From Candidatus Hodarchaeota archaeon (GTDB lineage: Archaea; Asgardarchaeota; Heimdallarchaeia; Hodarchaeales; Hodarchaeaceae): DNA of 27,571 nt. The stretch spans positions 1 to 27,571 of the forward strand of contig JAHQWW010000040.1 in the NCBI GenBank assembly GCA_029856365.1, written 5' to 3'. Position 1 is the first letter of the stretch. Every line of letters starts with the position of its first letter. The notes beneath the pieces were generated by a model. It made no database searches, was not told the DNA's origin, and saw nothing but the letters and a program-made list of their open reading frames with translations. Shown in pieces: positions 2,469 to 5,386 of this stretch. A program made the translations under genes and the position numbers.

Positions 2469-2771
2469 TCATACTCGGGTGATTTCAGTTCTTCTAGCTC
2501 TAGGACGACTACGAATCCATTTTTTTCCACATTCAGAACATGTAATCCGGAGATCAACTTTCTTTGTGGTTTTTGAGGTCATATTTCTCGCAGCAATCGG
2601 CCTGCGAGAATATCTTCCATGATTGCCAATACGACTTGTCCACCGAGCGCTCCTTCGACTCCCTTGGCTCATTCCTCCTCCTCTTTGACGCGGTTTCTCA
2701 ACTTTTACATCTTGGGATGTGTGTTTGTTGCAATTGGGACAGAATGTGCGCATTCTAGAAGGAATTTTCAT
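2469..2771 (-). CDS. rpl44e: 50S ribosomal protein L44e (eL42)
   Basis: MKIP..MRTFCPNCNKHT...KTTKKVDLRITCSECGK zinc-finger signature. Confidence 0.95.
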   Translation of the reverse strand: MKIPSRMRTFCPNCNKHTSQDVKVEKPRQRGGGMSQGSRRSARWTSRIGNHGRYSRRPIAARNMTSKTTKKVDLRITCSECGKKWIRSRPRARRTEITRV

Positions 2772-3075: not shown

Positions 3076-4221
3076 TTGCCTTTATTGCCTTTAAATCCAA
3101 AATATAAGACGATTATTGAACTAGGTCTGCTTTTAGGCTTTGCTATTCTGATTGCAATAGCTGTTTCTGCTGGAATCACGATTTTCTTGGGTGGATCTAG
3201 GCACCCTACTGTAGCAGTGACCACAGGTAGCATGCTTCCCATTTACAACGGTTTTCAAGATGGTGAATATACAGATATCTACCCCTTTCGTGGAGATATC
3301 CTTCTTGTGAAAAAAATTCCAATTGAATCGATAGAAGTGGGAGATGTTATCGTTTTCAATACCACAAATGTATCTGATCCTGTTGTACATCGTGTTGTTG
3401 CAAAATGGCAACATAATGGTGAATACTTCTTCATAACGAATGGGGACAACAATCTTTCACCGGATAAATGGGAAGATGTAGAGGGAACGATTTCTGGAGA
3501 TAAAGTTTTCGGAGTTGTAGTCCTTCGGATCCCTCACATTGGTTGGTTCTTGTTAGTAGTACAAACAACTTTTGGAAAAATAATTATCCTAGCGCTTGCA
3601 GTTCTCATTCTATTTGTTGGAGACGAATCAGAAGAGGAAGCCTCATCTATCAAGAAAAAACAGAATTTTATACATCAAGAAGAAAACACTAATCTGCTAT
3701 CAAAGATTAAGGTCATAGGAACCAAAATAATACAAAATAAGAGTTATCTATATGTTTTTCTCGCTCTAATGATTCTCATCTTATTTTTAAGTGCTAATTT
3801 ACTAGGTAGTCTTGTTAATCCTCCATCAGTCAAACTTTATCGTATTGAAGATGAATCTCGAATAGCTAATCTTATTCTGGCACCCTCACCTCTCTCTGTT
3901 AGTGGGAATAAAGATCTTTATTCTTGGAAAGATCATACCAATCAAACTATTTTCTTTTTCCCCATTCAAATCGAGATTCAATCAGGGGGAATTTTCAATA
4001 ATATTGATTGCATTGAAATTCGTGTTAATGAGACCAAAGGACTCTATCGTTGGACCACTGTTTACAACTTCATTGGGACACGTATTTTTGAGGGAGCAAT
4101 TATTGCAGTCATGGATAGCAATACTATTGCTAATGCCTCGGTTTCTGTAACCATGTATTCACGGGGATTACTTGCGTCTTCTCCCCCCCCCCATTCTTTC
4201 TCAATCATTTTACGAAGTTAA
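3076..4221 (+). CDS. sec11: Signal peptidase I (Sec11/S26B type) with an extra C-terminal TM plus extracytoplasmic domain
   Basis: TGSMLP (catalytic Ser), GDIL, VGDVIVF, VVHRV (His), TNGDNN, IPHIG. About 190 aa longer than a typical Sec11. TTG start uncertain. Confidence 0.9.
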   Translation: MPLLPLNPKYKTIIELGLLLGFAILIAIAVSAGITIFLGGSRHPTVAVTTGSMLPIYNGFQDGEYTDIYPFRGDILLVKKIPIESIEVGDVIVFNTTNVSDPVVHRVVAKWQHNGEYFFITNGDNNLSPDKWEDVEGTISGDKVFGVVVLRIPHIGWFLLVVQTTFGKIIILALAVLILFVGDESEEEASSIKKKQNFIHQEENTNLLSKIKVIGTKIIQNKSYLYVFLALMILILFLSANLLGSLVNPPSVKLYRIEDESRIANLILAPSPLSVSGNKDLYSWKDHTNQTIFFFPIQIEIQSGGIFNNIDCIEIRVNETKGLYRWTTVYNFIGTRIFEGAIIAVMDSNTIANASVSVTMYSRGLLASSPPPHSFSIILRS

Positions 4222-4223
4222 AG

Positions 4224-4988
4224 ATGAAAATCATGACTAACATTTGCTATTTGGTTGGTACTGCTGGATCAGGCAAAACTATGCTTACGTCATCCCTTCA
4301 ACAATATTTAACTACGAAAGGAGCCTCTCTCACCATAGTTAACCTTGACCCTGCAGTTCAATATATTCCTTACAAAGCAGATATTGACATTCGAGATTAT
4401 ATTGATTTTGATAGATTAGTCGATGAATATAAATTAGGCCCAAATGGTGCTATGATTGCAGCTGCAGATTTAATAGCAGATTACATTGTTGAAATACGTG
4501 AGGATATCGAGGAATTAGGTGAAAGCTCTGCAGTGGTATTAGTTGACACTCCTGGTCAAATGGAGCTTTTTGCATATCGCCATTCTGGTTTGAAAATATC
4601 AGAGAGCTTTCCAAAGGACACATCATTACTAACTTTTTTGTTTGATTCCAGCCTTATCTCTCAAATATCAGGATTTATTTCAATCAGTCTACTAGCAACA
4701 TCAGTTCAAATACGCCTAAACCTTCCTGTTACTCATGTTATAACAAAGAGTGATCTGTTGAAACCTCATCAGATTGACGATATTTTAGCATGGCGAGAGG
4801 ATCCATATGGGGCTATTGAGGAACTTTATGGCATGACCCGTGAATTTTCCGCACGAGCAGGACAGATAATTGAAGGGATGGGCCAAATTCCCTTAATACC
4901 CGTGAGTGCTCTTTCAGGGGAGGGCTTAGAACTGCTTAGTGCTCAAATTAGTCGTATTTTTGTAGCTGGTGAAGATTGGTCTATTTAA
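4224..4988 (+). CDS. GPN-loop GTPase
   Basis: GTAGSGKT, NLDPA, LGPNGA, DTPGQMELF, TKSD, PVSA. Confidence 0.95.
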   Translation: MKIMTNICYLVGTAGSGKTMLTSSLQQYLTTKGASLTIVNLDPAVQYIPYKADIDIRDYIDFDRLVDEYKLGPNGAMIAAADLIADYIVEIREDIEELGESSAVVLVDTPGQMELFAYRHSGLKISESFPKDTSLLTFLFDSSLISQISGFISISLLATSVQIRLNLPVTHVITKSDLLKPHQIDDILAWREDPYGAIEELYGMTREFSARAGQIIEGMGQIPLIPVSALSGEGLELLSAQISRIFVAGEDWSI

Positions 4989-5386
4989 AAGAGCTGTATC
5001 ATCCACACCAAAGAAGTAAATACTATAAAAAGAATTACAAAGGTGAAAGTCCCAGACAACCATAATCGTTTCTGATCAACCTGATCATATGGGATTTTAA
5101 GGCCATATCGCACAAAAGTGACACAGATAATCAAACTTCCAATAAGAATTACTATCCAAAGTTCTGGGGAGACATTTGACAACAGAAAAATTAATCCTGT
5201 AGCTATCCCGCCACCTACGCCAAAACAGATTTTGGTATAATACATTTTTGTATTGGGTGCAAGCCCTTGAGGCTTCGTTGCGCTTGGTTCGGACTCTAGC
5301 TCAAAAGATGAATCATCAGTTGGACGTTTGATTCTGCGAATCTTACGTTGACTGATATATCGCCGCTCTTTACTCAATTTCAACAC
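4985..5386 (-). CDS. EMC6/Rab5ip-like 3-TM membrane protein
   Basis: YYTKICFGVGGGIATG...WIVILIGSLII...LWLSGTFTFVILFIVFTSLVW follows the EMC6 pattern (Y.R...S...G..AG...G..T....W). Recognised by eye. Confidence 0.6.
   Translation of the reverse strand: MLKLSKERRYISQRKIRRIKRPTDDSSFELESEPSATKPQGLAPNTKMYYTKICFGVGGGIATGLIFLLSNVSPELWIVILIGSLIICVTFVRYGLKIPYDQVDQKRLWLSGTFTFVILFIVFTSLVWMIQLF

Follow-up and report, generated by a model that had tools for sequence, protein, structure and literature searches.

Does an archaeal signal peptidase carry, within its own chain, a counterpart of an accessory subunit of the eukaryotic enzyme? This question is raised by a gene at positions 3076 to 4221 in a 27,571-nucleotide (nt) stretch of Candidatus Hodarchaeota DNA (contig JAHQWW010000040.1; hereafter, the window), which encodes a long-form Sec11 signal peptidase I. 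In eukaryotes, the subunit SPC22/23 is described as one transmembrane (TM) helix with a beta-sandwich in the lumen, which embraces the core of SEC11 and on which activity depends (10.1101/2020.11.11.378711). A sequence-only reading of the window had proposed that the last part of the gene (3733-4221, which corresponds to amino acids (aa) 220-381 and the stop codon) is an SPC22/23-like module fused to Sec11. Our analysis separates the two parts of this proposal: the fusion is genuine and conserved, but a specific resemblance to SPC22/23 was supported neither by the Pfam model PF04573 nor by profile comparison with hhalign.

The arrangement of the C-terminal part was as that reading had described it. 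After the C-terminal TM helix of Sec11 (TM2) there follow a charged linker, a third TM helix (TM3) and a beta-rich domain, as was confirmed by hydropathy, which gave three TM helices in all, by the AlphaFold2 (AF2) model and by a model of the domain alone. The linker (GDESEEEASSIKKKQ...) contains both acidic and basic residues and came out as disordered from AF2, with a predicted local distance difference test (pLDDT) score below 50 over residues 182-220, and its length differs between lineages, as indicated by variable-length gaps in the homologue alignment A1. The domain itself was modelled as a sandwich of approximately eight strands in approximately 130 aa, with a pLDDT of 84.6 and a predicted TM-score (pTM) of 0.73. 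Given that the N-terminus is rich in lysine and is predicted to be cytoplasmic, and that the loop between TM2 and TM3 is charged, the catalytic domain and the sandwich would both lie outside the cell. The predicted topology is thus N-terminus in, TM1, catalytic domain out, TM2, charged loop in, TM3 and sandwich out, which would tether the sandwich on the same membrane face as the active site. The sandwich contains three N-x-S/T sequons, and 31 of 32 C-terminal domains (C-domains) contain such motifs; in the f1-type set, conservation reaches at least 90% for both N318 and T320 of the sequon NET. In archaea, proteins are N-glycosylated on the outside of the cell, and therefore the presence and conservation of these sequons fit an external sandwich. 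An SPC22/23-like module would be expected to have about 160 aa and a type II topology, and both were in this way borne out as predictions.

The identity of the enzyme itself is clear. Residues 23-179 matched the archaeal signal peptidase model TIGR02228 (sigpep_I_arch) at 73.2 bits, above the cut-off of 51.85 (75.3 bits in the genome search), while the Pfam model for bacterial-type S26 peptidases gave a weak match to the open reading frame (ORF). The motifs are those of the endoplasmic reticulum (ER) type, with S52 in GSMLP, H105 in VHRV and D124 in GDNN, together with D130; H105, D124 and D130 were invariant in 39 aligned sequences. Human SEC11C and SEC11A were the best solved relatives by sequence (E 2e-10, aligned through the catalytic motifs), and human SEC11 was also the best by fold (Foldseek, 7p2q_A at E 2e-4). 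The whole-genome search, in a genome that is 84% complete, found no second Sec11-type gene, so that the product is taken to be the housekeeping ER-type (Ser/His/Asp) signal peptidase I of this Heimdall-group Asgard archaeon.

To see how widely the fusion occurs, we considered several surveys together. A word-indexed search returned 38 close homologues that share this layout and bear the labels Heimdallarchaeota, Hodarchaeales, Promethearchaeota or Thorarchaeota. An exhaustive HMMER search with the C-domain profile of family f1 against 1.84 billion representatives returned only 29 proteins, most of which were 326-439 aa long and had the domain at their C-terminal end, while the others were 78-285 aa; none of the 29 resembled eukaryotic SPCS3. 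This narrow profile on its own suggested a range of a single genus, and the wider spread was revealed by the survey of Sec11 ORF lengths that the sequence-only reading had suggested. In the class of the window, nearly every Sec11 ORF was 335-450 aa long, whereas other Asgard Sec11 ORFs were mostly about 170-280 aa, with 311-361 aa in some families. The long forms from other families showed the same order of TM2, linker, TM3 and sandwich, and hhalign joined the C-domains of different families with probabilities of 84-99%. This is evidence, at the level of sequence profiles, for a single C-domain family across all lineages.

A broad Asgard C-domain profile (alignment A4) was then used on a sample of 300 Asgard genomes, and it found a match in 89 of them, usually one copy per genome. 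In the class of the window, 72 of 77 sampled genomes had a match (f1, 20/20; f2, 1/2; f3, 26/29; f4, 11/11; f5, 1/1; f6, 3/3; f7, 10/11). Five Asgard families outside this class also have the module (f9, 2/2; f21, 5/5; f22, 1/1; f24, 5/7; f26, 1/1), and one of them is labelled Njordarchaeales, after the NCBI name of one f24 protein. The three largest other families gave 0/76 (f11), 0/19 (f17) and 1/68 (f14, a weak match), and most of the Sec11 ORFs listed for them measured about 170-280 aa. The module is therefore far from a chance occurrence, being conserved in the 38 close homologues and in 89 of the 300 genomes. It is present in the Asgard group closest to eukaryotes, namely the class of the window and the Njordarchaeales-labelled family; Eme et al. 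in 2023 reportedly placed these lineages there. The matches were located in Sec11 ORFs that measured 310-450 aa, or in a few cases more, except for pieces at contig ends and two weak matches; these two aside, no C-domain was found by itself or attached to a different protein in the genomes searched. Four apparent stand-alone C-domains, namely P0050 (178 aa), which is one of the shorter proteins from the HMMER search, G067 (151 aa), G079 (267 aa) and G141, were all cut by contig ends, and a natural split form was therefore rejected. In a tree of the catalytic domains, the long and short forms fell on the two sides of one branch, with a Shimodaira-Hasegawa-like approximate likelihood ratio test (SH-aLRT) value of 87, a split that fits either one gain or one loss. 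The literature searched, whose coverage leaves out most subscription journals, contained no paper describing a Sec11-sandwich fusion.

Two other long ORFs with a Sec11 match were observed in the sampled genomes. One, in family f10 (G004; L029:904-1998, + strand), is a 365-aa Sec11 with a normal catalytic domain and an N-terminal addition of approximately 230 hydrophobic residues that by eye resemble several TM helices; here Sec11 has been enlarged in another manner. The other, in family f2 (G264; L059:1453-2952, + strand), is 500 aa long; the Sec11 catalytic profile matches it weakly and in part, and its C-terminal region is long. The C-domain profile had no match in that genome, and the ORF may be a divergent paralogue.

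Is the module related to SPC22/23 in sequence? The Pfam comparison proposed in the sequence-only reading gave no sign of this: PF04573 (SPC22) had no match at E<=10 in the genome of the window, nothing above the 25-bit cut-off and nothing at any Sec11 locus in the 300 Asgard genomes, and no match among 32 C-domains scanned. The weak PF04573 matches in the Asgard genomes were either noise, interrupted by internal stops, or belonged to a zinc-ribbon protein; among the candidates rejected, the match in G142 (a 181-aa ORF) was an unrelated secreted protein, and those in G107 and G187 (331-335 aa) were a membrane protein with a zinc ribbon, in which 'SWGTKQ' occurs by chance. For profile comparison we prepared an alignment of 36 animal and fungal SPCS3/Spc3 database sequences (A3). 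They were gathered with two 73-residue baits that were 99-100% identical to database SPCS3/Spc3 and were themselves left out of the alignment, and PF04573 was found on all matches listed. When A4 was compared with A3, hhalign gave a probability of 0.3% over 12 columns, and every Asgard sub-alignment, whether or not it included the TM helix, gave at most 1% and was indistinguishable from reversed controls. The segments that had seemed by eye to echo SPCS3 were left unaligned in the 0.3% comparison, and the first pair of them shared 4 of 24 residues. Eight columns are invariant in the 36 SPCS3 sequences (W80, N81, K83, Q84, F86, Y88, W106 and D107 in the numbering of the first row of A3), and these residues had no counterpart in the Asgard domain family. 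In addition, the catalytic domains of the long forms scored 39-49 bits against human SEC11, as compared with 54-74 bits for the short Asgard forms. The lower scores do not speak for direct descent of the eukaryotic enzyme from the long form, although unequal evolutionary rates could explain them. Homology to SPCS3 is thus not supported by these sequence comparisons, and because kinship was not demonstrated, we treat the module as an analogue.

The fold searches gave a similar picture. The sequence-only reading had named two findings that would together refute it. One was an equal or better match to a generic Ig-like or LEA-like fold, the other a prediction in which the domain forms no interface with the catalytic part, and the former was found: generic Ig-like or LEA-2/TMEM106-type sandwiches were the best fold matches of the module. 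The nearest folds of the domain model in Foldseek were carbohydrate-binding, adhesin, LEA-2/TMEM106 and FixG_C-type sandwiches. There was no SPCS3/SPC22 entry among the best 50 matches of each of the pdb, pdb_via and pdb_via_wide searches, although absence from the best 50 does not mean a different fold, and none was listed in the atlas fold search with the domain model. The f1 C-domain profile gave a chance-level match alone among PDB sequences (a viral envelope protein, E 0.034), a feature search of the protein atlas with the C-domain returned nothing usable, and PF03168 (LEA_2) and PF07092 (TMEM106) had no match at E<=1 in the 32 members scanned. In sequence, the sandwich is very poorly conserved across lineages (mean column identity, 23%); W326 is invariant and G334 nearly so across all lineages, and no other residue is near-invariant. 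We conclude that the module represents a domain family that is specific to Asgard archaea and whose fold is of a generic Ig-like kind.

Comparison with known systems clarifies what is shared. The core of the eukaryotic signal peptidase complex (SPC), which consists of SEC11A/C and SPC22/23 (Spc3 in yeast; PF04573; PDB 7P2P/7P2Q), has a related Sec11 catalytic domain of the Ser/His/Asp type, and in SPC22/23 likewise a single TM helix leads into a beta-sandwich of approximately 130 aa on the non-cytoplasmic side. However, the eukaryotic core is made of two chains, and human SEC11 is described as having one TM helix (10.1101/2020.11.11.378711), whereas the Asgard enzyme is a single chain joined through TM2 and the cytoplasmic linker. 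It also differs in that sequence or profile similarity to SPC22/23 is lacking, as are the conserved SPCS3 residues. The ordinary archaeal enzymes (TIGR02228; Haloferax Sec11a/b and Methanococcus SPase I) and the short Asgard Sec11 proteins share the catalytic family and the N-terminal anchor, but end about 20-50 aa past the catalytic domain (22-51 aa in the short Asgard ORFs), for a total of about 170-280 aa; the additional 200 or so aa of the long form are the linker, TM3 and the sandwich. The luminal domain of TMEM106B and the LEA-2 fold (PDB 8B7D; PF07092, PF03168) resemble the module in fold, but the Pfam comparison was negative as described above and the biological context is different.

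Taking these results together, we propose that TM3 and the sandwich most likely constitute a cis-acting accessory that supports or positions the catalytic domain, by analogy with SPCS3, and we assign this proposal a probability of roughly one half. Sec11 and its accessory module would form a single polypeptide; the sandwich would buttress the catalytic domain and position it at the membrane surface, and TM1 would gain TM2 and TM3 as neighboring helices, which would help to define the site at which the signal peptide is presented. In this way, the module would do in cis what SPC22/23 (SPCS3/Spc3) does in trans in eukaryotes. The separation of long and short forms on one branch of the tree suggests that the module has been kept with the enzyme through a deep divergence, as would be expected if it serves the enzyme. 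Several observations weigh against this proposal. None of the tests showed contact between the sandwich and the catalytic domain; complex prediction of residues 1-186 against 213-381, performed with alignments and without controls, gave scores of 0.01, 0.70 and 0.17, which we take as neutral on docking. The full-length AF2 model is moderately confident (pLDDT 69, pTM 0.58), with values below 50 in the active-site stretch 37-59. Most archaeal and other Asgard Sec11 enzymes are without such a module, so that Sec11 enzymes can in general catalyze cleavage in its absence. Moreover, given that W326 and G334 are the only near-invariant residues, they are likelier to mark the core of the fold than a conserved functional interface.

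The main rival is that the sandwich is an unrelated ectodomain, a surface module with a job of its own, such as glycan or S-layer binding, substrate capture or spacing, which is not docked on the catalytic domain. The binding-type folds nearest to the model, the long, disordered and variable linker and the very low conservation across lineages would all fit this. However, general-purpose binding modules usually spread to other proteins, and the domain was found in Sec11 ORFs, nearly always in one copy, with the two weak matches mentioned above as the exceptions; its presence also follows the tree of the catalytic domain. We therefore consider this explanation possible but rather unlikely. Common descent with SPC22/23 seems less probable still. 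In this case, the one-chain enzyme of the Heimdall group (including Njordarchaeales) would be ancestral, and eukaryotes would have split the gene into SEC11 and SPCS3, which then diverged beyond recognition by sequence. The module equals SPCS3 in size, type II topology and membrane side, SPCS3 is also a beta-sandwich, and the fusion occurs in the class of the window and in the Njordarchaeales-labelled family. In addition, the SPC accessory subunits appeared with eukaryotes, and SPC22/23 is said to have arisen at that point without a known precursor (10.1101/2020.11.11.378711). Against this stand the negative PF04573 searches, the hhalign values equal to those of reversed controls, the missing invariant residues and the lower scores of the long-form catalytic domains against human SEC11. 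An artefact, in which two genes were joined by mis-assembly or through the loss of a stop codon, is a general possibility in a metagenome-assembled genome but hardly deserves credence here: the same uninterrupted ORF is present in 88 other sampled genomes, several of them on contigs longer than 1 Mb, and the matches contain no stops.

Whichever explanation is correct, in nearly a whole Asgard class and a Njordarchaeales-labelled lineage the only Sec11 carries a covalent module with the layout of SPC22/23, while other Asgard lineages are mostly without it. Through ancestry or convergence alike, such an enzyme would provide a natural single-chain model for the role of a membrane-anchored sandwich in a Sec11 protease, and the module serves as a clade marker for these archaea. 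The one-chain enzyme also makes the question of the origin of SPC22/23 testable. If the module is unrelated and undocked, then the finding reduces to a lineage-specific domain fusion. The coordinates of the gene and its neighbors are given in Table 1.

Table 1. Positions in the window of the long-form Sec11 gene, its parts and the adjacent genes
Feature	Position (nt)	Strand	Basis
Long-form Sec11 signal peptidase I, whole gene, 381 aa	3076..4221	+	ORF, homologue alignment
TM1, N-terminal anchor, aa 20-38	3133..3189	+	Hydropathy; AF2 helix 8-38
Sec11/S26B catalytic domain (TIGR02228 match span)	3142..3612	+	HMM; alignment; Foldseek
Catalytic Ser52	3229-3231	+	
Catalytic His105	3388-3390	+	
Catalytic Asp124	3445-3447	+	
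Catalytic Asp130	3463-3465	+	
Insertion after Ser box (IYNGFQDGEYTDIYPF), aa 56-71	3241..3288	+	Homologue alignment; AF2
TM2, aa 166-184, after catalytic domain, brings chain back to cytoplasm	3571..3627	+	Hydropathy, AF2
Charged disordered cytoplasmic linker, aa 185-222	3628..3741	+	AF2; gap region in alignment A1
TM3, aa 227-245, accessory-module anchor, predicted N-in/C-out	3754..3810	+	Hydropathy, AF2
Extracytoplasmic Ig-like beta-sandwich, aa 250-381	3823..4218	+	Domain model, fold searches
GPN-loop GTPase, downstream (context, outside module)	4224..4988	+	Family HMM, locus comparison
Small zinc-ribbon ORF, upstream, divergent (context only)	2469..2771	-	ORF list, locus comparison

The gene has two in-frame candidate start codons, TTG at 3076 and TTG at 3085, which are 9 nt apart, and no ATG; the homologues and the Atlas record start at the second TTG (MPLNPKYK). 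Directly after the catalytic Ser box there is a 13-residue insertion (IYNGFQDGEYTDIYPF) that is almost invariant in family f1 and has a pLDDT below 50 in the AF2 model. Human SEC11C lacks it, as do all other scorable Asgard Sec11 forms, both long and short. We considered this insertion as a docking element or correlate of the module, and rejected it because it is restricted to f1 and missing in the other long forms.

The GPN-loop GTPase gene starts 2 nt past the Sec11 stop codon, which suggests co-transcription. On the other side, the zinc-ribbon ORF is probably, to judge from its sequence, ribosomal protein eL42/L44e. The order of zinc-ribbon ORF, long Sec11 and GPN-loop GTPase was examined in 12 f1 loci, where the GTPase was present in all 12 and the zinc-ribbon ORF in 11. 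This order was not seen in other families; the GTPase also adjoins Sec11 in an f2 locus, and the gene order is kept within the taxonomic order. Beyond the GTPase, a 133-aa ORF (4985-5386, - strand) overlaps its stop codon by 4 nt on the opposite strand and resembles a membrane protein, with long hydrophobic stretches.
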